Shown here: positions 27,268 to 62,924 of the stretch, in pieces
Position numbering within the stretch: position 1 is the stretch's first letter
Layout of the letters: every line of letters starts with the position of its first letter
Position numbers and translations under genes: made by a program
Notes under the pieces: generated by a model
What the model was told of the DNA's origin: nothing
Database searches by the model: none
What the model saw: only the letters and a program-made list of their open reading frames with translations
DNA from: a virus
Virus record (IMG/VR): IMGVR_UViG_3300019757_000093
Span: 1-64,000 of that record
DNA length: 64,000 bases
Strand: one strand, 5' to 3'

Positions 27268-27306
27268 CTTAGATATGGACGAATCCATATCTAAGATTTC
27301 CTGTCG
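27268..27306 (+). terminator. hairpin + TTCCTGTC element
   Basis: CTTAGATATGGA-CGAA-TCCATATCTAAG ATTTCCTGTCG. Confidence 0.7.
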
Positions 27307-27340
27307 TAGCTAAAATAGATATTTTTTAAAAAGGTATTAT

Positions 27341-28822
27341 ATGGATAAATTACAAAAAATAAATCTAAAACATAATTATAAATTTAAGTATATTTCTGAA
27401 ATAAAAAGAAACTGTGATATAATTAAATTTATATGTCCGGAACATGGCGAACAAGAAATGAAATATATTAATCATTTAAATAGTCCAACTGGTTGTAAAA
27501 TATGCAATAATATTATTATATCTCAAAGAAATTCTAAAAAGAGACCAATTGAAAAAAGCAGATCAATTAGATTAAATAATCTAAATAAAAAATTTAATAA
27601 AAAATTTAAATATTTAAATTTAGATAATATTACTGATTTTAATAAAGAATTATTAGATATAGAATGTCCAGAACATGGAAAATTTAAAATGGGGTATATT
27701 AGACATCTTAATCATAAAACGGGTTGTCCTATATGTTCGTATAAAATAAATTATCCAAATATTAAAAATATAGAATATTTAAACAATAAAAATTATATTA
27801 CTAATAACTTTATTCATAATAATATATTAGATACTATTGCTATTACTAAATTTTTTAATGTTGGTATAATAAAAATACATAAAATATTAAATAATTTAAA
27901 AATTTCGTATAAGAAAAAGATTGGTGGTAATAGTCAATTAGAACAAGAAGTATTAACTTTTATTAAATCCATATACTCTGGAAAAATAATAACGAACTCT
28001 CGAAAAATTATTACTCCACTAGAATTAGATATTTATATACCAGAATATAATTTGGCTATAGAATTTAATGGTCTTTATTATCATTCATACGGATTAAATA
28101 ATATTACTGATAAACAAGCTGATTTAAAATATCAGAGTACTAGACATTTAAATAAGACTAATCTATGCGAAGATAAAAATATAAATTTATTACATATTTT
28201 TGAGAATGAATGGTTAGATAATAATAAGCGAGAAATATGGAAAAGTATTATTAAAAATAAATTAAAAATAAATAATAATAAAATATATGCCAGAAAAACC
28301 ATTATAAAAGAAGTATCTATTCTAGATGCTAGAATATTTCTAGAAGAAAATCATATACAAGGTGCTGGAGCTATTGGTCCTATTAGATATGGTCTATATT
28401 TAAATGATACCTTAGTATCAATAATGACATTTGGTAAACCTAGATTCAATAAAACTATACCCTTCGAATTAATACGTTTATGTAGTAAAATTAATTATAC
28501 CGTAGTAGGTGGGGCATCTAGGTTATTTAAATATTTTAGAAAATACCATCCAGGTGAAATAATATCGTATGCAAATAGAAGATTTGCATTTAAGCATAAG
28601 AATATATATAAAACGCTAGGTTTAGAAGAAGAAGAAGTTACTGTACCAAATATGTTTTATTTTAAAGGAACTTCCGAATTATATAGTAGACATAAATTCC
28701 AAAAACATAAATTGATAAATTTTGAGCACTATTCAAAAGATAAAAGCGCATTAGAAATTATGATAAATAATGGATATAGAAGAATTTATGATAGTGGTAA
28801 TTTAAAATTTAAAACTAATTAA
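27341..28822 (+). CDS. Hef-like homing endonuclease (CPEHG zinc ribbons, PD-(D/E)XK domain, C-terminal GNAT-like domain)
   Basis: 2x CPEHG..H...GCxxC; ELDIYIPEYNLAIEFNGLYYHS; ELIRLCSK..GGASRLF..IISYANRRF. Confidence 0.8.
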   Translation: MDKLQKINLKHNYKFKYISEIKRNCDIIKFICPEHGEQEMKYINHLNSPTGCKICNNIIISQRNSKKRPIEKSRSIRLNNLNKKFNKKFKYLNLDNITDFNKELLDIECPEHGKFKMGYIRHLNHKTGCPICSYKINYPNIKNIEYLNNKNYITNNFIHNNILDTIAITKFFNVGIIKIHKILNNLKISYKKKIGGNSQLEQEVLTFIKSIYSGKIITNSRKIITPLELDIYIPEYNLAIEFNGLYYHSYGLNNITDKQADLKYQSTRHLNKTNLCEDKNINLLHIFENEWLDNNKREIWKSIIKNKLKINNNKIYARKTIIKEVSILDARIFLEENHIQGAGAIGPIRYGLYLNDTLVSIMTFGKPRFNKTIPFELIRLCSKINYTVVGGASRLFKYFRKYHPGEIISYANRRFAFKHKNIYKTLGLEEEEVTVPNMFYFKGTSELYSRHKFQKHKLINFEHYSKDKSALEIMINNGYRRIYDSGNLKFKTN

Positions 28823-28851
28823 AATATTCCCTTCGGGGAATATTCCTGTCG
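28823..28851 (+). terminator. hairpin + TTCCTGTC element
   Basis: AATATTCCC-TTCG-GGGAATATT CCTGTCG. Confidence 0.75.
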
Positions 28852-28865
28852 TTGAATTTACTTAG

Positions 28866-28877
28866 AACTAAAACTTA
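28866..28877 (+). promoter_or_regulatory. candidate late promoter
   Basis: AACT-AAAACT-TA. Confidence 0.65.
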
Positions 28878-28897
28878 TAAAATAAGAAGGATTTGCT

Positions 28898-29362
28898 ATG
28901 GCGTTAATGGATTTTAGTCTAGGGGATATTGGTGGACTATTTACTGGTTTAAGAGAAGCAATTACTGGAGAAAAAATAGAAGACCCAGTAGAATTAGCTA
29001 AGATAGATTTACAATTACAAGAATTAGAACGCCTTGCAAATGCTGGTCAAATGGAAGTTAATAAAGTAGAAGCGGCCCATAAATCAATATTTGTAGCTGG
29101 TTGGCGCCCCTGGCTCGGCTGGGTATGTGGAATGTCAATAGCATATAGTTTTATTGGACAACCATTATTAGAATGGGGATTGGTTTTCTTCGATCATCAG
29201 ATAGCTGTAAAAACAGTAATAGATGGTTCTATAGTTTGGTCAGAGGGAATAAAAGTACCACAAATAGATTCGGAGAATCTGATGGAATTAACCTTAGGAA
29301 TGTTAGGTTTAGCTGGACTAAGAACATATGAAAAAACAAAAGGAGTCTCTCGTGAAAGATAA
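28898..29362 (+). CDS. holin (3TM, GTA-type family)
   Basis: EAAHKSIFVAGWRPWLGWVCG and LGMLGLAGLRTYEK signatures. Confidence 0.88.
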   Translation: MALMDFSLGDIGGLFTGLREAITGEKIEDPVELAKIDLQLQELERLANAGQMEVNKVEAAHKSIFVAGWRPWLGWVCGMSIAYSFIGQPLLEWGLVFFDHQIAVKTVIDGSIVWSEGIKVPQIDSENLMELTLGMLGLAGLRTYEKTKGVSRER

Positions 29363-29876
29363 ATTTTGTAATAATTGCAGTACTCCTTTAATTATTAATA
29401 TTAATTGGAAAGAATATCATCAAAAAAATTGGATTAATACGTGTACTGTTTGTATTAATAAAAAAAATAAAATTGAGGCTAGAAAAAAGTATAAAAAGAA
29501 TAAAGAAAAATTTATTTCCTCTAGTAAAAAATGCCAACTGAAATTAAAAAATAATAATCCCAAGCTTTATAAAGCTAGAGAAATGAGACAATCAGCTAAA
29601 GGAAGATCTAAAAAGAAAAATTTAGATTTTAATATTACAGTTGAAGATATTTATTCTATTATGCCAGACTATTGCCCAATTTTAAAATCTAAATTAACAT
29701 ATTCTGGAAATAAAGATAAGAATTCTGCTTCCTTAGATAGAATCGATAGTTCGAAAGGATATACTAAAGAAAATATTCAAATAATATCTCAATTAGCAAA
29801 TATGATGAAAAGCAATTCTAATGAAGAGGAACAATTACTTTTCGCAAATTATATATTTAACAAAAATAAGAAATAA
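29352..29876 (+). CDS. His-Me finger/HNH-like endonuclease
   Basis: CxxC..CxxC N-terminus; CPIL..SLDRIDSSKGYTKENIQIISQLANMMK; GTG 29352 with AGGAG RBS. Confidence 0.75.
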   Translation: MKDKFCNNCSTPLIININWKEYHQKNWINTCTVCINKKNKIEARKKYKKNKEKFISSSKKCQLKLKNNNPKLYKAREMRQSAKGRSKKKNLDFNITVEDIYSIMPDYCPILKSKLTYSGNKDKNSASLDRIDSSKGYTKENIQIISQLANMMKSNSNEEEQLLFANYIFNKNKK

Positions 29877-29899
29877 AATAAAATAAAAGAAGGAATATT

Positions 29900-30505
29900 A
29901 TGATAAGTTATGATACATTACCAAAAGAAATAAATGAGGCTTTTACTGAAGGACTTAGACTTAGAAAAGCTAATAAAAAGAAACCAGAAATTAAAGAAGC
30001 TTTAGACGAACTAAAGAAAATTACATCTTGGTATGATTGGGACTATACTAAAAATACAAATTTAGCTAATAAGAAAATGGTTTATATTTTTCTTAATCAA
30101 TTAACTAAAGATAATTTTAAATGCGATAATCCAAAATGTACGGAATTAACTCGGATTAATTCTGATATTACTAAAAATAGTTATTGTAGTAAAAAATGTA
30201 AAGATCAAGATTATAAAGAAATGAAAGAAGCATCTGAAAAAGTTTTTAAGAAAATTAGAGAAGCTAAAGAAAAAGAAATAGTAACTCCAGAAAAGCCAGC
30301 AGTAATTGCGGAATTGACTCAAAAACAATTAAATGTATTTAAGAGAAATTGTAAACTTAAATTTAATGCAAAATATGGTTATGCTAAAACTTATTTTAAA
30401 AGTACTCAAGATTTAGTAATTGTAAATTGTCCAGAACATGGAGATTTTGAAGTACAAGTAATGGATCATTTACGAGGAATTGGATGTCCAGAATGTTTGA
30501 ATTAA
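29900..30505 (+). CDS. zinc-binding protein with C-terminal CPEHG ribbon, no visible nuclease domain
   Basis: CDNPKC..YCSKKC and CPEHG..H..GIGCPEC. Confidence 0.6.
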   Translation: MISYDTLPKEINEAFTEGLRLRKANKKKPEIKEALDELKKITSWYDWDYTKNTNLANKKMVYIFLNQLTKDNFKCDNPKCTELTRINSDITKNSYCSKKCKDQDYKEMKEASEKVFKKIREAKEKEIVTPEKPAVIAELTQKQLNVFKRNCKLKFNAKYGYAKTYFKSTQDLVIVNCPEHGDFEVQVMDHLRGIGCPECLN

Positions 30506-30518
30506 TAAAGGGAAAAAA

Positions 30519-30947: not shown

Positions 30948-30961
30948 AGGAAGGAAAATAT

Positions 30962-31618: not shown

Positions 31619-31626
31619 GTATTATT

Positions 31627-33113: not shown

Positions 33114-33139
33114 ATTCCCTTCGGGGAATATTCCTGTCG
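33114..33139 (+). terminator. hairpin + TTCCTGTC element
   Basis: ATTCCC-TTCG-GGGAAT ATTCCTGTCG. Confidence 0.75.
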
Positions 33140-33214
33140 TAGTTAAAACGACAGACGGAACAAAGATATATCAAAAATAATTAAAAACGAAGGAGCTATC
33201 ATGGCTATAAAAGA
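33131..33214 (+). repeat. duplicated leader (second copy ~43213-43295)
   Basis: TTCCTGTCGTAGTTAAAAC..AACAAAGATATATCAAAA..CGAAGGAGCTAT.ATGGCTATAAAAGA nearly identical in both. Confidence 0.9.
33159..33170 (+). promoter_or_regulatory. candidate late promoter
   Basis: AACA-AAGATA-TA. Confidence 0.65.
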
Positions 33215-34933: not shown

Positions 34934-34961
34934 AATCCCCCTTCGGGGGGATTTCCTGTCG
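34934..34961 (+). terminator. hairpin + TTCCTGTC element
   Basis: AATCCCCC-TTCG-GGGGGATT TCCTGTCG. Confidence 0.75.
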
Positions 34962-40381: not shown

Positions 40382-42409
40382 ATGGCTACTTATAATATAC
40401 CAGGTATCACTACAAGTGTTCTGGATATCACACACACTACTGCTAGTACAAGTTCTGGTAGATCAGTTCTTATTTCAGGTTTAAGTAAATATGGCGAAGA
40501 AGATCTGATGGAATTCTCAGATGCTACTATTGTTGATAGTACATTAGGAACAGCTAACTATAAAAAATATGGTTTAGGTATGAAGTATTTAAAAGGGGCT
40601 TTAACTAGAACTAATAAAGTTTATTTTAAAAGATTACTTCCAGATGATGCTACATTTAGTAATGTAAGTATCTCAGAAAATAATGAAATTATTACTCAAG
40701 AGAATTTAATCGATACTGGTGCTTTAGGTGCTACTAACAACGTATTTAATCTTACTGCAAAAGCAAGAGGTAATGGTTACGATAGTCTTTTTGTACAATT
40801 TTCTCCAGCGCCAGATTTAGAAAAATTATATGCTGATGAAGAGGGAGATTTAAATTATAGATTTAACTTTTTAAGAGCAGATATATTTGAAAATAACAAT
40901 ATTGGATTAAAATCTGTTTCAAGAAGTATTTTATTTTCTTTAATTGATGATGATCCTCAAACTGGAGCTCCAATTTTAGATATGAATACATCAAAAGAAT
41001 TATTTGTAAATCAAAAATTTGCTAATAATAATACTTTCTTAGATGCCACTATTCCAGAAGATGTTGTTTCAACACTATATGATCAATTAAGTATAGATGA
41101 GATTTGTGCTAAAAATTCTCAAGAAAGATTAGTACTTACAGATACAAGTACTGGAACTAACTATGAAATTATTATTAATAAAGAAGAAGGTTTTGAATTA
41201 AAAGCTGTTCAAGTTCAAGGTAAGAATGAAGAATTTTTAGGTATGGTTACTACTGCTAGTAATGGTGAAGTAATTACTAAAAAATATAAAATCTTTATAG
41301 AAGATAAAGCTCTTAAAACAGAAGTTTACTATGGAGATAATTCTTCATTCAGTACTCTTAAAATAAATGGAGTAAATGGTTTTTACGATTTATTAATTGA
41401 TGATTCTGAAGCTTTAGTAAAACAAGTAATTTCTTTTCCTAGATATGAATTATATAATAAATTAATTGGAAATAAATTTCAATTATCTAGTGGTTCTGAT
41501 GGAGAAAATTTAATTCTTAATAATAGAATTAACTTATATGGTCCAGGTGATACTACTAAGCAAAATGCTAAACAATTATTAATAGATTACTATAATTATA
41601 CCCCAGACATTAGAGAAGTTATGTATCCAAAATATGATTTTGATTACCTTCCAGATTGGACTGAAGATGTAGATGTAATGACTGCTATTAGTAATCTTGG
41701 GGATGAATTAGGTTTCTCAATGCCGATTGTATCTTTAGGAACAAGTCTTTCTAGAGAAGAAGATTATGCTAAGAGAAGAGAAGATTATATTATTAACTCA
41801 TATAATACTGCTATCTATAGTGGACAAGATAACCTTGAACATTACGATGAAACTACTGGTGGAACTATAAAAATTCCTCATAGTTATTTAGCAATGTTAA
41901 TTCATTTAGATGTCGATGATAATTATTCAATTACTGAACCAGCGGCTAATAAGAATAAAGCAACTATTCCAGATAGTAAAATTAAATTATCTTACCAAGC
42001 CACAAGTAAAGATATTGAAGTTCTAAGAGAAGTTCAAATTAATACAATCATTGATGAAGTTGATGGTATGTATGAAATTGATCAATTAACTGCTTATAAA
42101 AAAGCAAGTAAATTATCTAGAATCAATATAGTTAAACCTATTCATAGAATGAGAAAAGATTTACCAAGATTACTTAAAGACTTTATTCAAGTAAAAGCTT
42201 TAAATAACCAAATCTCAAAAGTTCAAGAAATAGTTAATAAATACATGGATAAATATTTAGTATCTGATGATAATATTAGAGATGGTATCTTTAGTACTAT
42301 TAAAGTTCAAGTGTACTTTATTGAAGAAGAAAATAAATTAATTGTAAGTATTACAGTTAACCCAATCGGTACTATTGAAACAATTAGTATACCAATTACA
42401 GTAATTTAA
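40382..42409 (+). CDS. tail sheath protein
   Basis: PGI start, ARG.GY, LSSGSDG, EPAA, QINTI, LSRINI, V.I.V.PIGTIE.I C-terminus. Confidence 0.9.
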   Translation: MATYNIPGITTSVLDITHTTASTSSGRSVLISGLSKYGEEDLMEFSDATIVDSTLGTANYKKYGLGMKYLKGALTRTNKVYFKRLLPDDATFSNVSISENNEIITQENLIDTGALGATNNVFNLTAKARGNGYDSLFVQFSPAPDLEKLYADEEGDLNYRFNFLRADIFENNNIGLKSVSRSILFSLIDDDPQTGAPILDMNTSKELFVNQKFANNNTFLDATIPEDVVSTLYDQLSIDEICAKNSQERLVLTDTSTGTNYEIIINKEEGFELKAVQVQGKNEEFLGMVTTASNGEVITKKYKIFIEDKALKTEVYYGDNSSFSTLKINGVNGFYDLLIDDSEALVKQVISFPRYELYNKLIGNKFQLSSGSDGENLILNNRINLYGPGDTTKQNAKQLLIDYYNYTPDIREVMYPKYDFDYLPDWTEDVDVMTAISNLGDELGFSMPIVSLGTSLSREEDYAKRREDYIINSYNTAIYSGQDNLEHYDETTGGTIKIPHSYLAMLIHLDVDDNYSITEPAANKNKATIPDSKIKLSYQATSKDIEVLREVQINTIIDEVDGMYEIDQLTAYKKASKLSRINIVKPIHRMRKDLPRLLKDFIQVKALNNQISKVQEIVNKYMDKYLVSDDNIRDGIFSTIKVQVYFIEEENKLIVSITVNPIGTIETISIPITVI

Positions 42410-42419
42410 GGAGAAGTAA

Positions 42420-43187
42420 ATGGCATTTAACGCAATCTCATTTAACAATGCAGTTACAAGTAGTTACACAAATAGATATACTGGAGGATCGGACTTAGTT
42501 GATAAGGCCAATCCTTTTATTAAAGGTTATTTTTATGTACTATTTGAGTTACCAGAAATATTTGATGCAGATTCAGATACTACTGGTTCAGATAAAGCAA
42601 CTTTACAGAAGTTACTTTTAAGTTCAGCAGAAAGTTTTACCCCACCAGGTGATAGACAATTAAAGACTGAAGATATTCAAGGTATGGGTGGATTAGATAG
42701 TTCGTTCGTAACAGGTCAAACTATCGATAGAAATTATAGTATTCAATATAAAGATTTCTGGGGAGCTCCAATATTTAGAATCCATAGAAAGTGGACTAAT
42801 ATTATTAATCCATATGCTGGTGGTATGGTTAAATCAGGAAGTAATAGTTTTCAATCTAAATCTTATAAAGGTAAATGTTGGGTGATCCAAACTAAGCCAG
42901 TTGTAGGACAATCTGATACTGTTTATGAAAAATCAGATATTATTAAAGTAGATTATTTTGATGGTGTATTTCCAAGAAATGATTTAAAAAGTATTTATGA
43001 TAGTAATATTACAGATAATAGTATTGTAAGACCAAACATGCAATATTCTTTTGATGGTTTCCCATTAGATGAAACAAACGAACAAGTTCTTACCGCCGCA
43101 GTTGCTAAACTAAATGCAGCTATTAATAGCGCAAGTTCAAGTTCAAATAGTTATAAAGTTTTCGGTAAATTAGCTGATGACGCATAG
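42420..43187 (+). CDS. tail tube protein
   Basis: Follows sheath; FTPPG, W..II, FDGVFP, YSFD tube-like motifs. Confidence 0.8.
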   Translation: MAFNAISFNNAVTSSYTNRYTGGSDLVDKANPFIKGYFYVLFELPEIFDADSDTTGSDKATLQKLLLSSAESFTPPGDRQLKTEDIQGMGGLDSSFVTGQTIDRNYSIQYKDFWGAPIFRIHRKWTNIINPYAGGMVKSGSNSFQSKSYKGKCWVIQTKPVVGQSDTVYEKSDIIKVDYFDGVFPRNDLKSIYDSNITDNSIVRPNMQYSFDGFPLDETNEQVLTAAVAKLNAAINSASSSSNSYKVFGKLADDA

Positions 43188-43191: not shown

Positions 43192-43221
43192 TCTTAGCCT
43201 TCTGGCTAAGATTTCCTGTCG
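43192..43221 (+). terminator. hairpin + TTCCTGTC element
   Basis: TCTTAGCC-TTCT-GGCTAAGA TTTCCTGTCG. Confidence 0.7.
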
Positions 43222-43240
43222 TAGTTAAAACTACAGATGG

Positions 43241-43252
43241 AACAAAGATATA
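43241..43252 (+). promoter_or_regulatory. candidate late promoter
   Basis: AACA-AAGATA-TA. Confidence 0.65.
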
Positions 43253-43281
43253 TCAAAATAATTAAAAACGAAGGAGCTATT

Positions 43282-44304
43282 ATGGCTATAAAAGACGTTA
43301 AGAAGATATTACACATTGAGTATGATTTAAATTCGGAAGAATTTAAATCTCAGAAATTAAACCAGGTGACTAAAAAATATCAAAGAATGCATCCAAGTAA
43401 ATTAGTAAAGGTTACTACTTATTGTGTTCAGAATAAACAATTATTAACTAGTTGTACTCAAGAGAATAAATCTTTAATTGGTGCTGGAAGTAATATATTA
43501 GAAGATATTTCTTTAAGTAATTTTTCATTAGTAACGTTAGATAACGAAATGCTAAATACTTTTGAATTAACAATTACGGCTAGTAGTACGATACCCTCTT
43601 ATGAAGAGGCTGTAAATATTGCCCAAGCTAAGGCGGATGCTTTATTTCGAAAAGATGATACAAAAATTCCTTTAGTAACAATTATTGATTATCGATTTGG
43701 ACAACCAGAAAATACAGTATCTAGTAGTATTTTTGGAACAGTGGATGAAAGTGGAAATGTCGTTACGGAAATTAATGGTTCTGCGGATATTACTATTACT
43801 GGTGGAAACTTAGCTGCTGGTATTCTAGAGCTAGCTAAACATAATCTTAACCAAGGTACTCCACCAGTAGAAGAGTTACCATTTTATTTATATCCAACTA
43901 ACAATTTAGAGATGACTCATAATCATGGAGAAAATTTTACATACGAAAGTACTATTAATATGGATACTATGGATAAACAAATGGCTTTATTTTCAAATAC
44001 TTATATGAACGTAAGTGTACTATGGGGTACCCAAATTCGATTCTATTACGAAGATAATACTGGTCATAATATAATAGGTTTATTTAATTTTAGTACTGGT
44101 ACTGATTATGATATTAAAGTTGTTTATAACGTAGATAATAATTTAGCTCAATTATATATTGATGGTAATTTAATTGCGGAGAAAACTACTTTTGATGGTA
44201 TGAAAGACAAATTCCGTAATACTTTTACAATTGGACGACAAAATTCTACTAATCATATTCCATTCAAAGGTGAAATTAAAGATAATAAATTTACAGCCTT
44301 ATAG
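43282..44304 (+). CDS. virion protein family member 3 with LamG/concanavalin-like C-terminus
   Basis: Start reset to ATG 43282 (AAGGAG RBS, paralog alignment); IKVVYN..LYIDG..FTIG..FKGEIKD. Confidence 0.75.
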   Translation: MAIKDVKKILHIEYDLNSEEFKSQKLNQVTKKYQRMHPSKLVKVTTYCVQNKQLLTSCTQENKSLIGAGSNILEDISLSNFSLVTLDNEMLNTFELTITASSTIPSYEEAVNIAQAKADALFRKDDTKIPLVTIIDYRFGQPENTVSSSIFGTVDESGNVVTEINGSADITITGGNLAAGILELAKHNLNQGTPPVEELPFYLYPTNNLEMTHNHGENFTYESTINMDTMDKQMALFSNTYMNVSVLWGTQIRFYYEDNTGHNIIGLFNFSTGTDYDIKVVYNVDNNLAQLYIDGNLIAEKTTFDGMKDKFRNTFTIGRQNSTNHIPFKGEIKDNKFTAL

Positions 44305-44308: not shown

Positions 44309-44333
44309 ATCCCCTTCGGGGGATTTCCTGTCG
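44309..44333 (+). terminator. hairpin + TTCCTGTC element
   Basis: ATCCCC-TTCG-GGGGAT TTCCTGTCG. Confidence 0.75.
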
Positions 44334-44363: not shown

Positions 44364-44375
44364 AACTAAACCATA
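44364..44375 (+). promoter_or_regulatory. candidate late promoter
   Basis: AACT-AAACCA-TA. Confidence 0.65.
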
Positions 44376-45811: not shown

Positions 45812-48800
45812 ATGGAATTAATAAATAATTATTCGAATACAGAAGGAGATTATTCATACGATATAACAGGGTATGTAAAAACTTCTTATATTAATATTAC
45901 TGCTCAAGAAGTAGATGGTTATATTAATAATTCTGATTATTTAAATATAAATACAGATGTATCCGCAACGGTTACATCAGAGGCTGGAGATCATGGTTTT
46001 ACTTATAAATGTCATATTGATATATCAGGTATGTTTGAGATTGATTTCAATTTACCTAACTTCTTAAGTGTACCAGGAGTTAATTTAACTTTATTTAAAA
46101 AGATGGATGAATTCAGTAAACAATTAAGAGATTTAAATGATAATTTAATTAACTTTATTCAAAGTACTGGTTGTTGTGATATGTCATATCAATATAATAA
46201 AACCATGGTTCCTATATTTAGATACTTAGCAGATCATCCAGATGTATCTGGATGTAATATTGAAGATCCTAAAGTTGGACCAGGGGATGATTGTAAGAGA
46301 GGTGGAGGAAGTAATTTTATGTCTGAGATACTTAAAGTAATTACTCAGATTACTAAAGTATATACCGCTATCGAACCTATCTTTTGTATAATTAAACCTA
46401 TACCAGGAAATCCTTGGTTGCCATTCGATTTTAACTGGATAAGACCAATTCTTCCATATATTGAAAAGTACAGTAAGTTTGCAGAGAAGATTATGTCTGG
46501 GGAATTAATAGATGTAATTATTGATCCAGTTAAAGATATCAATAGAACATTATTTAACTGTAAGCAAAGTAAATCAGTTCAGACTTTAGAAAAAGGTATT
46601 ACCGCGAGTACTATAAATAATGCCATTTCAGAAATTAAAAACGAACAAGATTTTTTAGAAGCTAGAAAAGAATTTGAAAAGAAAGTTAATGATAATAGGG
46701 CAGATGCTTTACAATCATTAAGTAAATATTCTGATCTTCCTAAAGTATATGCTTTCTTAGGAGATATGATAGATCAAAATGAAAAGGATAAAGAACAAGA
46801 GAAAGCTTTAATTGCTAGAGTTCAAACTGATTTAGATTTAATTCAAGATACCTTTAGTCTAAGTAAAAAAGAACAAGAAAAAATAGAAGCTTATTCTACA
46901 GCAGAAAAGAATCAACCATTACAATGTCTTCAAGAATTATTTAAATTTCGGCCAGAACTTCCTAAGTTACCTTGGACAGAAATATCATTATTACCTACTG
47001 GAGATACTAGACTTAGAAATGATCTAACTAAAGTAATTGGTGAGACTGCTTTCGCTATTAAATATAAAGATATTTATGGGGATAATAAAGAGTTTACTAA
47101 TGCCCCTCAAATTATGGATAAGAATATTACTTTTGATGAGGATGCTGTTTATAACGCTGATTTTGTAAGTAAGTTCCGAGAGTACATGAAGAAAGATGGA
47201 CAAAATGTTAGTTATAAAAAAATACTTCCTAATGATTTTAATTTTTATTTAGATGACGCCACCTTAAAAACTTCTTCCTTTGATACATCCGCTTTAGATA
47301 ATGCTTCTGATTTCTTTACTAATAAGAGTACCCTAGAAGGAGTTATGGATAGAGATATATCAGCTTTTGATAGTACTATGTTTAGTACTGTGACAGGGGA
47401 TACTGATACGGTACTAGATAATAATAATAAAATAGCTAATTTTATTCAAAGATTACAGGAGAAAGAATCTAGTGTAGTTAAAGAATTAAATAAAGCTATA
47501 ACAGAAGATAAACTTAATTGGGAAAAAGCTAAAGCTAAATCTCAAATAGTTCTAGATAAAATTATAAAAGATTATAAAAAAAGAATTAATAAACCTATAG
47601 AAGATGCTTTTAGTTATTTAAGTACCCAATTAATAGATATTTCAGTAGAAGAAGCTCAAGAAGCTCATTGGAATTGTTTTGGAAAATATTTAGAAATAGA
47701 TATTATTAATGATCCATTTGATAAGACTAGTACTGATGGGTATGAATTTCTAGAAAGTGTAGATGGGGAGGTTGCTCAACAACAATCTATTATTAATGGT
47801 TATATTAGACAAAGAAAAATTCTTTTAGGTGGTTTTGCTCAAAAATATTTTAATAAACAATTTGAATTTTTAAAAGAAGAATTTGATACATGTACTAATG
47901 CTGCTAATACTATAAAGAATGGAGTAATACAATTATTAAGTCAAAAGATTTCTCAGATAGAAACGGGTGGAGTAATTAAAGTAGTGACTGATAGTGAATA
48001 TGACGCTGCGGATAATACTGATTTATTATATAGAATTTCAGATATTAGATTTGATATATTAGATAGTTTTGAGGGTACTCCTTACGAAAGTACAGTAACC
48101 GATATTAAAGAGGCTCAAGAAATAATAGTAGATAATATTGTATTTAATAAATATATAAAAAGAATAGAGAAATACGTTTCTGTAATTGGTCCAGGTTTAT
48201 ATTTTCCAATAGCAGATGAGAACGATAATATTTTAAACGTTTATGATCTTGGAACTGTAATTAGTACTATGTATGATAAATTACTCAGTATTATAACCTT
48301 TCCAGATGCTAGTGATAGTGATAGTAATGATACTAATATAGAAGGACTATTACTTAGAACTTTTAAATATGAGGCAATTAAAAAGACTTTATTTACTACC
48401 ATAGATGATAATGTCGCATATACTTTTTATGTAACCTTTACTCCAGAAATAACTATTGGTTGTAATATTATTTGCGAACTTATTCAATTTATAGTTAACT
48501 ATTTGCTAGCAGCCATAAAGAAGATATTAAAAACTTTAATCTTTTGGTTAATAGATTATTTAATACCAGATTGGTTAAAGAATATTATTAGATTAATTCT
48601 ATATAAATTAAAATGTTTTTTAATGATTGCTTATATGCCAGAAAGATTATCTAAAATAGATGATACATATGATTCTTTTATGGAAAGTATTAAGAATAGA
48701 ATTGCTTTATATCCATATGATGCATGCGCTAAAAAAGCTATTGATAATGCATTAGCTAATGAAGCGGCTGAATTACCAGATACAGAAGAGAACGAGGATA

Positions 48801-49885
48801 CTATTATTGATGTTGCTAGTACTCATGTTCTAGTGGCAGAATTCGTGGACGAAAAGTTGAATACTGTTAGAAGTATTTCTAAATATAATTATCAAAATAT
48901 TAAAATTAGATTTAAAAAAGATCAATTAGCTACTTTAAATAATGTAGTACTTAAAGATTTAGATGATGATTTATCCGGAGCTTCCGCTATTAACTTAACC
49001 GAAATGGTTCAGAATTTTGATCCAACAGATGAAGTAGATTATGATAAGCATTTTTACATTATTTCTTTAAATAATGGAGACTTACTTATAAATAATTTAG
49101 ATTTGACTTTATTAAGAACAGAGTCATGTATAATCCAAGCAGAAAGTTTTAAGAGTACTGCTACTCAACAGAATTTAAATGCTAGTCATGTTATTACAAA
49201 TAGGTTTACTTCTATTGGAAATAAAAGTGATAGTATTATTCAGCTCCAGGATGAGAAGACTTCTTCCTATACCCAATTATTACAAAGAAATAAAAGATTT
49301 TTAAAAGTTTCATTTCAAGAAAAGTTAGAAAGTACTATTCTAAATATAAAATTAGTGGATAAGACTATACCAGTCCAGGCCCAATTACCAACCACAACAA
49401 CAGAAGAAGTAATAGGCAAACAACCATTACCAACAGTAATTATAGATTTATCTCATTACAAGATTTTGTATGATAGTAGTACTAATTTAAAATATTTTAT
49501 TTATGATTGCACAAATTTCTTTCCAAAGAATACGGAAATACAAGCGGAGTTAAGAACGATATTTAATGGAAGTACTACTATAACGACCGATGCTATATTT
49601 TGTCAGGAAGATCCTGGAATTAATAATAATATCAATTCAGATATAGGAGATATAGCAAAAACTATTAATGACCAATTAATTACTAGTGTACCAGTTACTA
49701 ATCCTGGTATAAATCCAAATCCTCAAACAGCCGAGGAGTTAGCAGCAAAGGGTACTTCCCAAGCAAGAAAATCAGTTCCTATTTTATTTGATTGTGAAAA
49801 TAGTAATGGTTTAATTACTTCTGTGGTAGCAGCAAATTATGAATCATGGATAGCCCTTGGTTTAATACCAGATCCAAATAACTAG
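45812..49885 (+). CDS. large virion protein with Cys-rich and amphipathic segments
   Basis: 1357 aa after spike gene; amphipathic stretch IICELIQFIVNYLLAAIKKILKTLIFWLIDYLIPDWL. Confidence 0.6.
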   Translation: MELINNYSNTEGDYSYDITGYVKTSYINITAQEVDGYINNSDYLNINTDVSATVTSEAGDHGFTYKCHIDISGMFEIDFNLPNFLSVPGVNLTLFKKMDEFSKQLRDLNDNLINFIQSTGCCDMSYQYNKTMVPIFRYLADHPDVSGCNIEDPKVGPGDDCKRGGGSNFMSEILKVITQITKVYTAIEPIFCIIKPIPGNPWLPFDFNWIRPILPYIEKYSKFAEKIMSGELIDVIIDPVKDINRTLFNCKQSKSVQTLEKGITASTINNAISEIKNEQDFLEARKEFEKKVNDNRADALQSLSKYSDLPKVYAFLGDMIDQNEKDKEQEKALIARVQTDLDLIQDTFSLSKKEQEKIEAYSTAEKNQPLQCLQELFKFRPELPKLPWTEISLLPTGDTRLRNDLTKVIGETAFAIKYKDIYGDNKEFTNAPQIMDKNITFDEDAVYNADFVSKFREYMKKDGQNVSYKKILPNDFNFYLDDATLKTSSFDTSALDNASDFFTNKSTLEGVMDRDISAFDSTMFSTVTGDTDTVLDNNNKIANFIQRLQEKESSVVKELNKAITEDKLNWEKAKAKSQIVLDKIIKDYKKRINKPIEDAFSYLSTQLIDISVEEAQEAHWNCFGKYLEIDIINDPFDKTSTDGYEFLESVDGEVAQQQSIINGYIRQRKILLGGFAQKYFNKQFEFLKEEFDTCTNAANTIKNGVIQLLSQKISQIETGGVIKVVTDSEYDAADNTDLLYRISDIRFDILDSFEGTPYESTVTDIKEAQEIIVDNIVFNKYIKRIEKYVSVIGPGLYFPIADENDNILNVYDLGTVISTMYDKLLSIITFPDASDSDSNDTNIEGLLLRTFKYEAIKKTLFTTIDDNVAYTFYVTFTPEITIGCNIICELIQFIVNYLLAAIKKILKTLIFWLIDYLIPDWLKNIIRLILYKLKCFLMIAYMPERLSKIDDTYDSFMESIKNRIALYPYDACAKKAIDNALANEAAELPDTEENEDTIIDVASTHVLVAEFVDEKLNTVRSISKYNYQNIKIRFKKDQLATLNNVVLKDLDDDLSGASAINLTEMVQNFDPTDEVDYDKHFYIISLNNGDLLINNLDLTLLRTESCIIQAESFKSTATQQNLNASHVITNRFTSIGNKSDSIIQLQDEKTSSYTQLLQRNKRFLKVSFQEKLESTILNIKLVDKTIPVQAQLPTTTTEEVIGKQPLPTVIIDLSHYKILYDSSTNLKYFIYDCTNFFPKNTEIQAELRTIFNGSTTITTDAIFCQEDPGINNNINSDIGDIAKTINDQLITSVPVTNPGINPNPQTAEELAAKGTSQARKSVPILFDCENSNGLITSVVAANYESWIALGLIPDPNN

Positions 49886-57471: not shown

Positions 57472-57512
57472 ATATTTAGATAAGGATAAACCTTATCTAA
57501 ATATTCCTGTCG
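57472..57512 (+). terminator. hairpin + TTCCTGTC element
   Basis: ATATTTAGATAAGG-ATAAA-CCTTATCTAAATAT TCCTGTCG. Confidence 0.75.
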
Positions 57513-57526: not shown

Positions 57527-57538
57527 AACTAAAAATTA
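57527..57538 (+). promoter_or_regulatory. candidate late promoter
   Basis: AACT-AAAAAT-TA. Confidence 0.65.
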
Positions 57539-58182: not shown

Positions 58183-58189
58183 AATAATT

Positions 58190-58214
58190 AAATCCCTTCG
58201 GGGATTTTCCTGTC
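58190..58214 (+). terminator. hairpin + TTCCTGTC element
   Basis: AAATCCC-TTCG-GGGATTT TCCTGTC. Confidence 0.75.
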
Positions 58215-58228
58215 CCAGATTAACGAAG

Positions 58229-58240
58229 AACTAAACCTTA
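58229..58240 (+). promoter_or_regulatory. candidate late promoter
   Basis: AACT-AAACCT-TA. Confidence 0.65.
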
Positions 58241-58259
58241 TAAAAATAAAGGAGAAACA

Positions 58260-60350
58260 ATGCCCAATATTATAACAGATGCTATAGTAGTACCAGCAGA
58301 AATATTTAATATTGTTCCAGAAATAGAAGATATGAGATCCTTTCCATATCCTGGAGCTATATTTAGTACCGCTCAATATATAGATAGATTTAGTATTTTT
58401 ATTACTTTTGAATTGAACCCAGTATCCTATTACGCTGATCAACCTCTTAGTATTAATAAAACCGATTTATCAGCAGACACTATATCTCAATTAGATTTAA
58501 CAGAATTTGGATTTGATGGAAAAGTATCTGACTTAGCTAATATAGAAGCCATTAAACAATTAACTGGTACTAATGTATTAAATGAAATGCAGAATTCCGT
58601 TAATATTATGGATAACCTAGAAGAGTTAAAAGCCAATCCATTAAACCAAGTAAGTTGTCCAGAATTAACTACAGAAGAACAATTAGAATTAGAAGAAGCT
58701 AATTTAATGACTACTGAGATTAGAGATACTGAAGGAAATGTAATTGAAACTATTCAAACTCAATTATCCGAACAGCCTTTTAGTTGTCCTAATAGTACGG
58801 ATCCAGCCGCCGAACTTACTGCCAATATATTAAATGGTTTAGTAATTCCTAGTGCAGATAATCCATTGGATACTAGTACCGAACCAGCAGTATGTCATAT
58901 TCCAGAAGGCCCTTATCAAGATATCGTTAAAGATGCTTTAACTACAGCGGAAGTACAAACTAATGTAACTACCCTTGATGTTAATAATATAACTAATAGT
59001 TTAACTGCGGTAGTAGATCGACAATTAGAACTTATTGGAAATAATACGGCTATTGATCCAGATACTGCAGAAGAAAACGTTGAAGTAATTAAAGATATGC
59101 TTGATGATGTTGAGTTGGTACAATACGGTATTCCAGTACTTGTTATTAATAAAGAATTAAATATTATTATTCAAATAGTCAATGGAGAATTACGAGTACT
59201 TAATTTTGATAAATTCATTACAGATATACCTGGATTAGAAATTCCAAATACCCCAAGTGGTTTTAAACCTAATATTTCTACATTAAATCCTGAATTAAAA
59301 ATTGATATAGTTGAGAACCCTGGCGCCAGAATTCTACCAGGTATTAAATATACTCTTATGTATTCTAGAAGATTTAATAATCATAAAATAGAATTACAAA
59401 GAGAATTTAAAGATGAAGTCTATCAGGCCGAAGCAGTTGCTGGTATAGATACTGGTATGTTTTATTTAGGTACAGATAAAGCTGGGTTAAAACATTTCTG
59501 TGGAAAATTTCACGATGTTCATTTAACTTTAGATGGTTCCGATTCAGTTCGAAATTATAATCGTCAAAATTCATTTATGAATGAAATTTATGGGGCATTA
59601 GCTTTTTACGATTTCTATAATCCAGGAGATTCTATTTCTAATCAAGCTCTTAGTAGAATTAAATTTAATAAAGTTTATCCTTATAAGAATATTACTAATG
59701 CTATTAGTATGAGAGGAGATTGGAAATTAGAAGATAGATTGACTAATAATTATACTTTTATGAATCATGGATTCATAGATGATATTTTCTGTAAAGATTT
59801 CTTCTTGAAAAAATCTTTTACTATTAGCGTATGGATTAATAAAAATAGAAGGTTAGATAATCCAGAGGATTTTCGATATAAAAAGAGACAAATGATTATA
59901 TCTGATAATATTAATGAGAATTATTTTTGGTATGATGAAAGCACATATGAATTTAATATTCAATTTCATGGTTTTCATTATCGAATGTTCTTTAATATTA
60001 TTCCTCAACTATGGAATATGGTAACGTTTAGATACTCAGCCGAACTTCAAAAGTTTTATTTAGATGTAAAAATTAAAACTAAAGATATAGATGGAATTTA
60101 TACAACTGAAACATTCTCGGAAGAATTTCAGTTAGACACCGATTTAGAAGTAGCTAATAAAAAAGAATTTAGATTACTTAATATTTTTGCAGAGTATATT
60201 TGGGATAAGAAAGAACATCAAAATATTTTTGATTGTTTAAGCGGTCCTATTATTCTTTACGATAATTTCCAAACTGATTTAATTATTAATAATAATTTTG
60301 AAAATCAATGGCCTGTGTTAGATGAGTACTTACTCTCTGGAATTTCATAG
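58260..60350 (+). CDS. virion protein with LamG-like domains
   Basis: FSIFITF, FYLGTD..FCGKFHDV, SFTISVWI, WNMVTFRY. Confidence 0.6.
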   Translation: MPNIITDAIVVPAEIFNIVPEIEDMRSFPYPGAIFSTAQYIDRFSIFITFELNPVSYYADQPLSINKTDLSADTISQLDLTEFGFDGKVSDLANIEAIKQLTGTNVLNEMQNSVNIMDNLEELKANPLNQVSCPELTTEEQLELEEANLMTTEIRDTEGNVIETIQTQLSEQPFSCPNSTDPAAELTANILNGLVIPSADNPLDTSTEPAVCHIPEGPYQDIVKDALTTAEVQTNVTTLDVNNITNSLTAVVDRQLELIGNNTAIDPDTAEENVEVIKDMLDDVELVQYGIPVLVINKELNIIIQIVNGELRVLNFDKFITDIPGLEIPNTPSGFKPNISTLNPELKIDIVENPGARILPGIKYTLMYSRRFNNHKIELQREFKDEVYQAEAVAGIDTGMFYLGTDKAGLKHFCGKFHDVHLTLDGSDSVRNYNRQNSFMNEIYGALAFYDFYNPGDSISNQALSRIKFNKVYPYKNITNAISMRGDWKLEDRLTNNYTFMNHGFIDDIFCKDFFLKKSFTISVWINKNRRLDNPEDFRYKKRQMIISDNINENYFWYDESTYEFNIQFHGFHYRMFFNIIPQLWNMVTFRYSAELQKFYLDVKIKTKDIDGIYTTETFSEEFQLDTDLEVANKKEFRLLNIFAEYIWDKKEHQNIFDCLSGPIILYDNFQTDLIINNNFENQWPVLDEYLLSGIS

Positions 60351-60352
60351 AA

Positions 60353-60400
60353 TTAGCTAATAGCTAGCTCACTATACTAAGCTAAACTATTATTAGCTAT
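60353..60400. repeat. AGCT-rich dispersed repeat, short form
   Basis: TTAGCTAATAGCTAGCTCACTATACTAAGCTAAACTATTATTAGCTAT. Confidence 0.9.
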
Positions 60401-60422
60401 TTAATTAAAAAAGGAATAAATA

Positions 60423-60596
60423 ATGATCGATAAGATTATGACCGAAGAAGAATTTTTAGAGGAATGTAAAATTTCTTCGGATAATGAAATACCAATAGAG
60501 AGGGTTACTTTTAGGGTAGAGACAGCAGAAATGATAGTTCAAACTTTTATGGAGTATATTGAAGAAGAAGATTTAGAACTTTCAGAGGCTTTATAA
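60423..60596 (+). CDS. 57-aa acidic microprotein (not in ORF track)
   Basis: AAGGAA RBS; MIDKIMTEEEFLEECKISSDNEIPIERVTFRVETAEMIVQTFMEYIEEEDLELSEAL. Confidence 0.65.
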   Translation: MIDKIMTEEEFLEECKISSDNEIPIERVTFRVETAEMIVQTFMEYIEEEDLELSEAL

Positions 60597-60597
60597 T

Positions 60598-61332
60598 TTG
60601 TCTATTCAAATAAGAAGAAATAACTATTTTAAAAAAGCGGAACGTATTCATAAAGATAAATTCTCTTATAATAAAGATAGTTATATTCATTCTAAGAAAA
60701 AAATAGAAATCTTCTGTCCAGAACATGGGAGTTTTTGGCAAAGACCGGATCTTCATTTATCTGGAAAGGGTGGGTGTAGAGGTTGTAATCCTATCAGTGA
60801 TTATACTTTTAAAAAAGGACATCGCCCTGCGAATACTCATAACCAGGACGATTTCATAAATAAATGCATAGAAGTTCATGGTAATAGATACGATTACTCG
60901 ATGGTAATATATAAAAATAGCACTTCCAAGGTACAAATTATTTGTCCAGAACACGGAAGTTTTTGGCAAAGAGCATCTGATCATAAAAATGGATGTGGCT
61001 GCCCAAAATGCTGCGAAAGTAAAGGAGAAGCTAGAGTTAGAACTTATTTAGAAGAGAATAAAATTTCTTTTAAACAAGAATATAGCTTCTCTAAATTAGG
61101 TCTATATAGATTCGATTTTTATTTAGAAGAATATAATCTCTGTATAGAATATGATGGTCGACAACACTTCGAAGAAGTAGCTTGTTGGGAACCCTTGAGC
61201 GAAGTCCAAAAGAGAGACGAGATTAAAAATAATTATTGTAAACACGAAGGTATAGATTTAATCCGTATCCCTTTTACTAAGTTTAAGTTAATAAAAGAAA
61301 TTTTAGATAATAAATTAAAGGAATTAAAATGA
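60598..61332 (+). CDS. homing-endonuclease-like protein (2x CPEHG ribbon + PD-(D/E)XK/DUF559-like)
   Basis: CPEHGSFWQ x2; SKGE..L..QEY..RFDFYL..IEYDGRQHF..D..K..YC..LIRI. Confidence 0.82.
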   Translation: MSIQIRRNNYFKKAERIHKDKFSYNKDSYIHSKKKIEIFCPEHGSFWQRPDLHLSGKGGCRGCNPISDYTFKKGHRPANTHNQDDFINKCIEVHGNRYDYSMVIYKNSTSKVQIICPEHGSFWQRASDHKNGCGCPKCCESKGEARVRTYLEENKISFKQEYSFSKLGLYRFDFYLEEYNLCIEYDGRQHFEEVACWEPLSEVQKRDEIKNNYCKHEGIDLIRIPFTKFKLIKEILDNKLKELK

Positions 61333-61649
61333 GTACTGTAGCTAGAATAGGAGACCCTTGTTTCGGAATATGTATGTGGCCACCGTAACCTCCGCCATCA
61401 GGACCAGGCCCACAACCCTGCAATGGTATAATTACTAGTGGAGACCCACAACATTTAAGTGGTAGTACTCCGGTAGCAAGATTAGGTGATTTCGCTTCAT
61501 TCCCTATTGGACCAGCTCAAATAGTATTTGGTACTCCAAATGAATTAAGTGCTGGTCAACCGGTAGCAAGATTAGGAGATTCAGTTTTAGGACCATTAGT
61601 AACTTCTGGTATAATTACTGGAGGAAATCCTCAGGATATTAGTCTTTAA
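61329..61649 (+). CDS. PAAR spike-tip protein with in-frame TAA at codon 20 (61386-61388); not in ORF track
   Basis: MSTVARIGDPCFGICMWPP*PPPSGPGPQPCNGIITSG..PVARLGD..PVARLGD..GIITGGNPQDISL: three PAAR motifs in one frame. Confidence 0.85.
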
Positions 61650-61653
61650 ATTA

Positions 61654-61701
61654 AATAGCTTAGCTTAAGATAGCTATAGCTTAGTATAGTGCTCCAGCTA
61701 T
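61654..61701 (+). repeat. 48-bp AGCT-rich repeat, full copy
   Basis: Identical to 18315-18362. Confidence 0.95.
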
Positions 61702-61756
61702 TCCATTTTTTTCACGACATGAAATTACAAAATGGAGAATTGAGGAAAGGAATTAA

Positions 61757-62866
61757 ATGATAAATTTTTATAGTGTTGAGAATCAAGCCAATGTTATACC
61801 GATATCAAAAGGGAATGATTGGCCTATCATTGGACACGTAAAATTATATACTGAAAATTTTAATAATTTTAATAATCAATACAATAGTTTATTTCAAGAT
61901 ATAGATACTTATGTAGCCGATAATAATAACGGTGAATGTTTACATCAGGATACATATGCTTTCTTTAAAGAACAATTCAAAGATAAACTTCCTACTTTAT
62001 TAGGAGATTTAACGGCTGGAATGGATAGTATGTATTTGGATAACATGAGAACTTCTGACGTTCCATCATTTACAAGTACTGCTGGAATATTTGCTAAGTT
62101 AGTAGATGTATTAGATACAGGGGCCGATAATTTTTTAAATAATTATAGTATGGCGAGACAGATGGAGAAGTATGAATGTTCTTATCTAACATTATTTAGA
62201 TTCTTGATGCAATTACAAGGAACTATTAAAAGTGGAACTATTATGGGATACTTTGATAATATATATAAAGAATTTAAAGAATCATTAGACGCTTTCCGAA
62301 ATTATATTATATTAGATACTAGAACTAATCCTCCATCTTATAGAAGTACTTGCGAGCAATTAGAGGCTATCCATTTTGGATTATATAATGAATACGAATA
62401 CGCTGGCGAAACTTTTCCAGCTTTTAATAATCATTTTCAAGAATATCAAGCTGCCTTATTAGAAGGGTTTGAAGATCTAAATTTAATATTAGATACTTTT
62501 CAAGGCTTCTATGATGAATTATATTTAGGTATGAAAGTAATATCAGCTATTAATATGGTATTTTATTCTGATCCACAAGATGCTGATATGATTAGAAATG
62601 AAGGAGCGAGCAATTTTTCTTTTTTAACATTAAGTACAGAAGGAAATGATGCGGAAGATACTAGAACATTAAAGGCCAGAACTCTTTATTGTATTAGTAT
62701 TTCGATACCGATGGCATTGGATGCTATTCAATATATAGATAGTACTAGAAGTAATATCAATACTATTTTAGCCCAATTAATTCATAATGTATTAGATGCT
62801 TTAGGAATTCTCCCAAAATTAACTGCTATGAAAGAGGTCGTTTTAACTCAAGGTGGTGAACTATAA
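61757..62866 (+). CDS. hypothetical helical protein
   Basis: 369 aa, AAGGA RBS. Confidence 0.7.
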   Translation: MINFYSVENQANVIPISKGNDWPIIGHVKLYTENFNNFNNQYNSLFQDIDTYVADNNNGECLHQDTYAFFKEQFKDKLPTLLGDLTAGMDSMYLDNMRTSDVPSFTSTAGIFAKLVDVLDTGADNFLNNYSMARQMEKYECSYLTLFRFLMQLQGTIKSGTIMGYFDNIYKEFKESLDAFRNYIILDTRTNPPSYRSTCEQLEAIHFGLYNEYEYAGETFPAFNNHFQEYQAALLEGFEDLNLILDTFQGFYDELYLGMKVISAINMVFYSDPQDADMIRNEGASNFSFLTLSTEGNDAEDTRTLKARTLYCISISIPMALDAIQYIDSTRSNINTILAQLIHNVLDALGILPKLTAMKEVVLTQGGEL

Positions 62867-62871
62867 GGTAA

Positions 62872-62894
62872 ATCCCTTCGGGGATATTCCTGTC
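62872..62894 (+). terminator. hairpin + TTCCTGTC element
   Basis: ATCCC-TTCG-GGGAT ATTCCTGTC. Confidence 0.72.
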
Positions 62895-62924
62895 CGTAAA
62901 AAAAGACAGGAGTTTGTAAGCTAT

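Follow-up and report, generated by a model that had tools for sequence, protein, structure and literature searches.

What does a short, constant sequence do at the foot of hairpins whose stems vary from one gene end to the next? The question is raised by positions 1 to 64,000 of the IMG/VR virus record IMGVR_UViG_3300019757_000093 (hereafter the window). A preliminary description, made from the letters alone, had listed nine + strand gene ends there with a stem-loop followed at once by TTCCTGTC, and had taken the combination for an undescribed code of transcription termination or RNA cleavage. We suggest that these modules are probably terminators of late transcription, with a lineage-specific element, recognized by the phage polymerase or a cofactor, in place of the U-tract. 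The contig, 74.3 kb long (G+C 27-28%), has the window as its first 64 kb and amounts to ~26% of the genome by the IMG/VR rating; the source is an uncultivated jumbo phage of roughly 280 kb when complete. Its genes, for which we used our own picks of open reading frames (ORFs), form a leftward block (134-18177) and a rightward block running from 18490 to the end of the contig.

A count of the tail by strand and context against expectation, which the preliminary description had proposed, bears it out. TTCCTGTC occurs 11 times in the window versus 1.15 expected, a number reached in 0 of 100 shuffles, and 9 of the 11 copies are on the + strand, all of them intergenic. These nine lie 21-116 nt downstream of a + strand stop codon and directly 3' of hairpins with folding free energies (dG) of -7.8 to -15.7 kcal/mol. 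They were recovered at exactly the coordinates first given, each abutting a stable hairpin, with the tail continuing in G at seven sites and c(UUCG)g loops in six of the nine hairpins, as had been described. The two - strand copies (54835 and 63462) are antisense within genes and have no hairpin.

Following the + strand, module 1 (27268..27306) joins a 12-bp hairpin with loop CGAA to ATTTCCTGTCG (dG -15.7), 116 nt past the capsid-like gene 25632-27182 and upstream of a Hef-like homing endonuclease gene (27341-28822); module 2 (28823..28851), 21 nt past the stop codon of the latter, is a 9-bp c(UUCG)g hairpin whose final TT is already part of TTCCTGTCG. A c(UUCG)g hairpin with ATTCCTGTCG makes up module 3 (33114..33139), an 8-bp c(UUCG)g hairpin with TCCTGTCG module 4 (34934..34961; dG -13.9), and an 8-bp hairpin with loop TTCT and TTTCCTGTCG module 5 (43192..43221), which follows gene 42420-43187, itself next downstream of the tail sheath gene. 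Module 6 (44309..44333) is a c(UUCG)g hairpin plus TTCCTGTCG, module 7 (57472..57512) a 14-bp A/T-rich hairpin with loop ATAAA plus TCCTGTCG (dG -15.2), module 8 (58190..58215) a 7-bp c(UUCG)g hairpin plus TCCTGTCC, and module 9 (62872..62895) a c(UUCG)g hairpin plus TATTCCTGTCC. A tenth module, a hairpin with TCTCCTGTCC, lies beyond the window at 73870-73911 of the contig. The variant noticed earlier at 23396 is real as well: an 11-bp + strand hairpin (23396..23430) carries TTTTCATGTG, which keeps the pyrimidine run and TGT, and it is located before the late-promoter region starts. Because the cassette that follows them is duplicated, the tail sites 33131 and 43213, with their different hairpins, are not fully independent.

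Often the stem closes with one or two T's from the start of the 8-mer, which leaves (T)CCTGTC(G) as the invariant, unpaired core. The proposal that the tail takes the place of the U-tract holds in that there is no plain U-run, but the tail is not U-free: UUUCCUGUC has 5 U's in 9, and some sites pass a loose scan for a hairpin with a T-rich flank.

Relatives were located through the tail sheath protein, and three of them (G001, G002 and G003, with sheaths 56%, 37% and 53% identical to that of our contig, G000) were pooled with G000 into a set of 41 curated sites. Forward and reverse copies of TCCTGTCG number 10 and 1 in G001, 3 and 13 in G002, and 5 and 0 in G003, versus 0 in all three for the reversed-pattern control. 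Nearly all of these copies are directly 3' of a perfect hairpin, and the stems are unrelated in sequence. Copies that depart from this comprise four antisense and one sense-strand inside genes of the relatives, two within tRNA genes of the other strand, and a few intergenic ones rejected by the hairpin filter, one of which had a longer, branched stem. Another route to relatives, the exact pattern TTCGGGG-N3-4-TTCCTGTC, was given up; its 88 single matches, in unrelated viral contigs of 39-62% GC, correspond to the chance level for 15 specified bases.

The pooled sites contain 39 distinct hairpins of 12 bp on average, with tetraloops in 29/41, a mean dG of -15.7 and a z of -6 versus shuffles; UUCG hairpins account for 6/10 in this contig and 5/41 among the pooled sites. 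Identity in the 3' arm is 0.31, equal to background. In 38/41 sites the end of the stem is within -1 to +3 nt of the first T of TCCTGTC, and the median distance from the stop codon of a co-oriented gene to the module is 31.5 nt. The sequence logo reads W-T-T-TCCTGTC-G-Y-N-R-A-A, with the G in 33/41 sites and the Y in 40/41, and conservation thus runs a few bases past the tail (G-Y-N-R-A-A). That unrelated stems carry the same tail in relatives at 37-56% protein identity agrees with the proposal that hairpin and tail are one signal. The preliminary description had also suggested that the tail could be masked by downstream sequence, and the two 7-bp pairings that it named exist: at 33134..33154 (+ strand) the tail bases CTGTCGT pair with ACGACAG in a second hairpin, and at 62888-62911 the tail of module 9 is pairable with GACAGGA (62905-62911). 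Masking is a minority feature overall, since a downstream complement of at least 7 nt is found at 4/41 sites, versus 0/41 control windows.

The module follows the direction of the genes. Reading intergenic hairpins on the gene strand, the tail is exact in 29/71 and has one mismatch in 3/71; read against the genes, 0/61 hairpins have it. In G002 the tails flip strand with the genes, 3 standing after + and 16 after - genes. This restriction to the gene-sense strand is as expected from an action on transcription or RNA, the level that had been proposed. In at least eleven lineages a hairpin with tail is found ~0.7-1.3 kb past the end of the sheath gene, a correspondence judged by distance, and the stem is different in each. 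At several sites the next gene is convergent (G002 61644, G001 27911, G003 33463 and the variant at G002 98450-98480).

Two hairpins of G002, both at or near convergent junctions, differ in what they offer to each strand. The one at 61616-61644 has the tail (CCTGTCG) on one strand and a T-run on the other; the one at 98450-98480 has the one-mismatch tail TTCCTGCCC on one strand, and neither tail nor T-run on the other. A further observation concerns a non-coding stretch of ~500 nt that follows a five-tRNA cluster in G001 (L089:1291-1810), with a counterpart at the corresponding position of L091. The stretch closes with a branched hairpin, ACC and TCCTGTCG; it matched nothing in Rfam, and a phage non-coding RNA bearing the terminator of the clade is one possibility.

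Outside G000-G003 the tail changes. In G005 (181 kb, sheath 38% identical) 13 co-oriented hairpins are followed by TCTTGT[CG] and none by TCCTGTC. The tail is TTCTTGTC in L147, the closest by sheath (63%), CTTGTGG in L155, L158 and L162, TTTTGTG in L151, CYTGTGCC in L150 and L163, and CCTGTCTG in L153, giving a clade-wide core of TC-Y-TGT-S (TCYTGTS). The tail was rightly called constant within a lineage, but across the clade it varies. Such uniformity within a genome, combined with differences between lineages, is what would be expected for a cis signal co-evolving with a single trans-acting reader.

We also considered that the tail might be an ancestral feature of the group of phage AR9, and dropped the idea. 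TCCTGTC is not enriched in AR9 or phiR1-37, where its counts equal those of the reversed-pattern control. In AR9 the 102 co-oriented intergenic hairpins with a perfect stem of at least 8 bp are flanked by T-runs or A/T-rich sequence, and no tail is shared among them. Nor is TTGT enriched, at 8/102 co-oriented versus 9/68 anti-oriented hairpins. From these comparisons we regard the tail as a derived feature of this clade. An early-class tail, 'TTTTGTAA', was suspected in G002; there are too few intergenic hairpins in that block to support it.

The modules are linked to late transcription through a second element. A box of the form AAC[AT]AA-N4-TA, resembling a late promoter, occurs within 100 nt after 18/41 tails, compared with background rates per 100 nt of ~0.02 (gene strand) and ~0.004 (other strand); 23/41 tails have no canonical late box within that distance. 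In G000 there are 18 boxes on the + and 2 on the - strand, a box stands before the next gene at 9/10 sites (eight less than 40 nt from the tail, one at ~160 nt), and eleven intergenic boxes are 14-31 nt upstream of start codons. The + strand boxes that follow modules are AACTAAAACTTA (28866..28877, 21 nt before a start codon), AACAAAGATATA (33159..33170, and again at 43241..43252 in the cassette duplicated from 33131-33210), AACTAAACCATA (44364..44375), AACTAAAAATTA (57527..57538), AACTAAACCTTA (58229..58240) and AACAAACCTTTA (62925..62936), all in AACWAA-N4-TA form. Seven sites are thus followed by AACWAA 14-31 nt past the 8-mer, as first described, and the idea of a stop/restart cassette gains from the box being a common sequel to the tail. 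The box is conserved in G001-G003, with AACT as common as AACA. Four tails of G002 have an identical 14-nt spacing to the box; in general the distance from tail to box is variable (14-39 nt), whereas that from tail to stem is fixed, and we therefore regard the tail as part of the hairpin module, not of the promoter.

Tails and boxes are found in common blocks of the genome. The leftward block of G000 has 0 tails, in accordance with the earlier remark that modules are missing there, and 0 boxes, and both elements start after ~25 kb. In G002, 3 tails and no intergenic late box fall in the 0-100 kb block, where the RNA polymerase genes are, and 17 tails and 16 boxes in the late block. This co-location links the tails to the late class. 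Attempts to see in the tail an anti-Shine-Dalgarno sequence or an upstream element of a promoter were set aside: its spacing to the Shine-Dalgarno sequence or promoter is variable, and many sites are near neither. Matches to sigma-70-like promoters were not above shuffles.

The relative G002 (227 kb) encodes a split multisubunit RNA polymerase (RNAP), with a beta fragment (PF00562, E 2.7e-25) and the N-terminal part of beta'. The nearest isolates of the beta fragment, at 22-24% identity, are the Bacillus phages PBS1, AR9 and Goe21 and the Staphylococcus phage S6. The suspected tie to a phage-encoded late RNAP has gained support from this find. The parallel drawn earlier with T7 RNAP and its class II terminators has not lasted: PF00940 (T7-like RNAP) was not found in G000-G003, which are incomplete genomes, and the control genomes gave no match either, while the sequence comparison points to an AR9-like multisubunit enzyme as the late polymerase of the clade.

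A T7-like RNAP had been looked for because of a CTCACTATA-like repeat; that search is the one for PF00940 just described, in which the controls also stayed empty. Seven intergenic spacers contain an AGCT-rich repeat of ~24 nt, TAGCTRGMKCACTATACTAAGCTA, with a T7-promoter-like CACTATA core, at 7775, 16782, 35007, 45761 and 60370 on the + strand and at 18352 and 61691 on the - strand. Its orientation relative to the genes is mixed, and it may be an early or middle promoter or a regulator site.

Anatomy, strand rule, position, conservation, tail variants, the polymerase of the relative and the link to late promoters having been observed directly, we propose the following mechanism. The late units, which comprise virion genes, would be transcribed by the phage's own AR9-like multisubunit non-virion RNAP. 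At the end of a gene the nascent RNA would fold into a stable hairpin of arbitrary sequence, so placing a tail of 8-9 nt (UU-UCCUGUC-G) where the U-tract would be, that is, in the RNA:DNA hybrid between the base of the stem and the release point. This tail would act as a sequence-specific pause or release element for the phage polymerase or a phage cofactor, and transcription would restart at the AACWAA-N4-TA late promoter 14-31 nt further on. Because the tail is fixed and contains G/C pairs, a weak hybrid alone would not be the principle, and something should read it. We infer termination in preference to cleavage, as we infer the reader, for which the polymerase core, a sigma-like subunit and a separate factor are candidates.

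Tentatively, and with rather low probability, one may go further and regard the tail as a termination code read by the polymerase itself: the non-canonical multisubunit RNAP, or its sigma-like specificity subunit retained during elongation, would recognize YY-TGT-S directly after a hairpin, in either the transcription bubble or the hybrid, and release the RNA. Co-evolution of tail and reader would explain why sister lineages have TCCTGTCG, TCTTGTG, TTTTGTG and CYTGTGCC. Read on its template strand, the late promoter is 5'-TTTWGTTCY-3', which resembles the tail, 5'-TCCTGTCGY-3', a likeness that has its counterpart in phage phiKZ, where the terminator tail carries the TATG of the promoter. Should this likeness have a meaning, a single protein surface would serve for reading both the start and the stop signal.

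How do the modules compare with known ones? A canonical intrinsic terminator has ~4-8 uninterrupted U's after its stem, its RNA 3' ends lie 7-9 nt past the stem, and release is factor-independent. The modules resemble it in having a stable, co-oriented hairpin right after the gene, a pyrimidine-rich segment of 8-9 nt abutting the stem at the place of the U-tract, and a lower stem that pairs an upstream A-run with the first U's. They differ in that 2-3 U's are followed by invariant CCUGUCG, which puts three or four G/C pairs into the hybrid, and in that the sequence itself is fixed, not just its composition; by the logo the tail is (W)UU-UCCUGUC-G, and no uninterrupted U-tract is found. T7 RNAP reportedly pauses and terminates at the class II signal ATCTGTT. 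Class II signals are hairpin-independent, serve a single-subunit RNAP and need a downstream U-run. Here too a phage polymerase would stop at a short, defined sequence containing CTGT and not at a generic U-tract, but ATCTGTT is absent from the tail, and a hairpin is present at all 41 curated sites. Phage T4 is said to have C(UUCG)G hairpins in intercistronic regions, which would likewise be extra-stable tetraloops at gene ends of a large virulent phage; in T4 they are not known to have a fixed tail, and here UUCG forms only part of the hairpins.

For late promoters of the AR9 type the transcription start site has been mapped at the final A/G, and uracil is read in the template strand. The boxes of the clade, AAC[AT]AA-N4-TA, fit the AR9 consensus AACA-N6-TA and stand a short way before late genes, on the gene strand, differing in that AACT is as common as AACA; the likeness is one of the restart element and does not extend to the tail, and our boxes are predictions from the DNA. 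In AR9 the non-virion RNAP reads the late promoter, AACA-N6-TA/G, on the template strand through gp226 (PMC5312081, PMC5449584, PMC9209446).

The closest parallel is in phiKZ, whose terminators, mapped by ONT-cappable-seq, consist of a hairpin and a conserved tail, 5'-BCCYCCCCHWWDGGGRRGGBYTTATKYYGT-3' (Putzeys et al. 2024, PMC10914365); 201phi2-1 has a matching terminator motif A (PMC11512511). These too are jumbo phages, they have their own multisubunit RNAP (in our clade one was seen in the relative G002, none on the contig), and they too have gene-end hairpins abutted, in many copies per genome, by a genome-wide constant tail that is not a U-run. RNA 3' ends were mapped at their modules, whereas ours are known from sequence. 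In addition, the tail of phiKZ is unrelated (TTCCTGTCG here versus a TTATGCCGT-like or TATGCCG type there), its hairpin is conserved in sequence (CCYCCCC...GGGRRGG) whereas 39/41 stems differ here, its promoter has TATG where the RNAP of our clade is nearest AR9/PBS1 and the late promoter is AACWAA-N4-TA, and tail variants of sister lineages are visible in our clade. The kind of signal, a hairpin with a conserved non-U tail, is therefore already known from 3'-end sequencing in phiKZ and 201phi2-1 (PMC10914365, PMC11512511), and the word undescribed applies to what is new here: the tail sequence, the hairpin rule and the phage clade. Literature searches on TTCCTGTC and TCCTGTCG returned only primers and macrophage papers, and no mention of the tail was found in the library searched.

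Could the modules be sites of RNA processing or stability instead, as the foremost alternative has it? An endoribonuclease of the phage or the host would cut long late transcripts at UCCUGUCG by the stem, and the hairpin would shield the new 3' end against exonucleases. The same anatomy would be expected (+ strand, intergenic, with very stable hairpins including extra-stable c(UUCG)g ones); sites for nucleases or RNA-binding proteins are typically of this kind, with a strictly conserved, single-stranded 8-mer next to a structure, lineage-specific tails equally fit co-evolution with a phage nuclease, and the 23/41 sites without a canonical late box within 100 nt are in keeping with it. We nevertheless think processing unlikely. 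A cleaved polycistronic RNA has no need of the late box that precedes the next gene at 9/10 G000 sites, the sites at convergent junctions have no downstream cistron to process, and the conserved block, which directly adjoins the stem, matches a terminator U-tract in length and place; this analysis turned up no nuclease as a candidate. Moreover, in phiKZ-type phages it was from enriched primary transcripts that such modules were assigned as terminators, and a reporter assay showed termination at several of those of 201phi2-1 (PMC10914365, PMC11512511).

A different objection is that these are ordinary intrinsic terminators, serviceable to any bacterial-type RNAP, whose tail is constant for other reasons: copy-and-paste of the cassette, a DNA site for a regulator or roadblock, or an upstream element of the next promoter. 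Several observations lean this way, namely the 5 U's in 9 and the sites that pass the loose T-rich scan, the near-duplicate modules (the cassettes at 33131 and 43213 were clearly duplicated with their genes), the common 14-nt spacing to the late box of four G002 tails, and the conservation beyond the tail (G-Y-N-R-A-A), which could suggest a DNA site. However, with 39/41 hairpins different and the tail identical across genomes at 37% protein identity, recent spread cannot explain the tail. A promoter element is at odds with a tail-box spacing of 14-39 nt, with the 23/41 sites lacking a box within 100 nt and with the fixed tail-stem spacing. Finally, the related polymerase of AR9 needs no such tail, so that strict conservation here calls for a specific reader. 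We judge this explanation improbable. There is very little chance, in our estimation, that the tail is a signal at the DNA level (nicking, recombination, packaging or a homing-endonuclease target) that lies beside palindromes by coincidence. The motif is indeed strongly strand-biased, and the Hef-like gene 27341-28822 is flanked by two modules; yet there is one endonuclease gene for ten sites, the sites follow stop codons without exception and run with the genes in both orientations of G002, a UUCG tetraloop has a meaning only in the + strand RNA, and no enrichment is seen inside genes.

Termination at a tail read by a dedicated factor, which we prefer, also has observations weighing against it. 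Some hairpins are near copies (the CCC-UUCG-GGG type in G000, and one stem found six times in G001 and G003), and part of the site count is therefore duplication. Avoidance of the tail in coding sequence was not detectable (1 observed, 2.2 expected from synonymous-codon shuffles, a comparison with no power), and so there is no sign of activity of the tail without its hairpin. No RNAP gene is present on this contig, which covers ~26% of the genome, the polymerase being seen only in the relative with a 37% identical sheath, and the RNA 3' ends that should form at the modules are likewise a prediction. The tail is moderately U-rich (5/9), and an interrupted U-tract could be usable by any RNAP, its constancy being owed to something else. 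In AR9, the nearest relative with a characterised polymerase, terminators have plain U-tracts and no fixed tail; the AR9 analogy therefore supports our reading of the promoter, not that of the tail.

Termination by the non-canonical multisubunit RNAPs of jumbo phages is not understood; for polymerases of the AR9 kind, the structural work states that no aspect of it has been defined (PMC9209446). The clade described here is an unusually clean natural experiment in this respect, having a free hairpin, a fixed tail of 8-9 nt per genome, and variants of one or two bases in sister lineages. Those variants are a ready-made mutant series for studying sequence-dependent termination in vitro, and they are candidates for orthogonal terminator/polymerase pairs in synthetic biology. 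In addition, the rule of a hairpin with TCYTGTS followed by AACWAA-N4-TA would allow the late units of uncultivated ~280-kb phages to be annotated from their genomes.

As for the phage itself, the relatives found via the sheath protein include contigs of 181-295 kb, which makes this a jumbo-phage clade. No GenBank isolate is close to the contig, the best sheath match being 24% identical. A search of sequencing runs for this DNA listed no RNA run, only three DNA runs, all of them microbial-mat metagenomes. Recognisable genes are few on the contig, and most genes adjoining the modules have no identifiable function. Those recognised are the tail sheath gene (40382-42409), the major-head or capsid-like gene already mentioned (25632-27182, +; a weak match), a holin-like protein gene (28898-29362), an epimerase gene (21594-22799) and the Hef-like homing endonuclease gene (27341-28822, +; PHROG 3339, E 4e-108). 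In AR9- and phiKZ-type phages the large late proteins include virion RNAP subunits. Two large ORFs of the contig, 2223-6413 (-) and 45812-49885 (+), of 1396 and 1357 aa, gave no Pfam, PHROG or PDB-sequence match.

Several smaller features of the window deserve mention. The stretches 33131-33210 and 43213-43290 are near-identical, each comprising the tail, the second hairpin, the AACAAAGATATA box, a 5' untranslated region and a start (ATGGCTAT); they precede two paralogous genes, and the terminator hairpins upstream of them differ. Since the cassette with the box at 43241 is a duplicate of 33131-33210, the ATG near 43283 is probably the true start of the ORF called at 43237-44304. A plain hairpin with TTTTT (AAACGTTTTTGCAAAAACGCTTTTTAATT; 25568-25600, +) shortly before the capsid-like gene indicates that the phage has U-tract terminators alongside those with the tail. 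A PAAR-like ORF (61329-61649, +) with ARIGD and ARLGD motifs lies within a gap of 424 nt that the gene calls leave; it is broken by an in-frame TAA at 61386-61388 that could be a sequencing error, the mark of a pseudogene or a case of recoding. The Hef-like gene has DNA similarity to hef genes of Campylobacter phages, and AR9 has Hef-like genes as well. Placed between the capsid-like and the holin-like genes, with a hairpin and TTCCTGTCG module on each side, it has the look of a free-standing insert with a terminator of its own.

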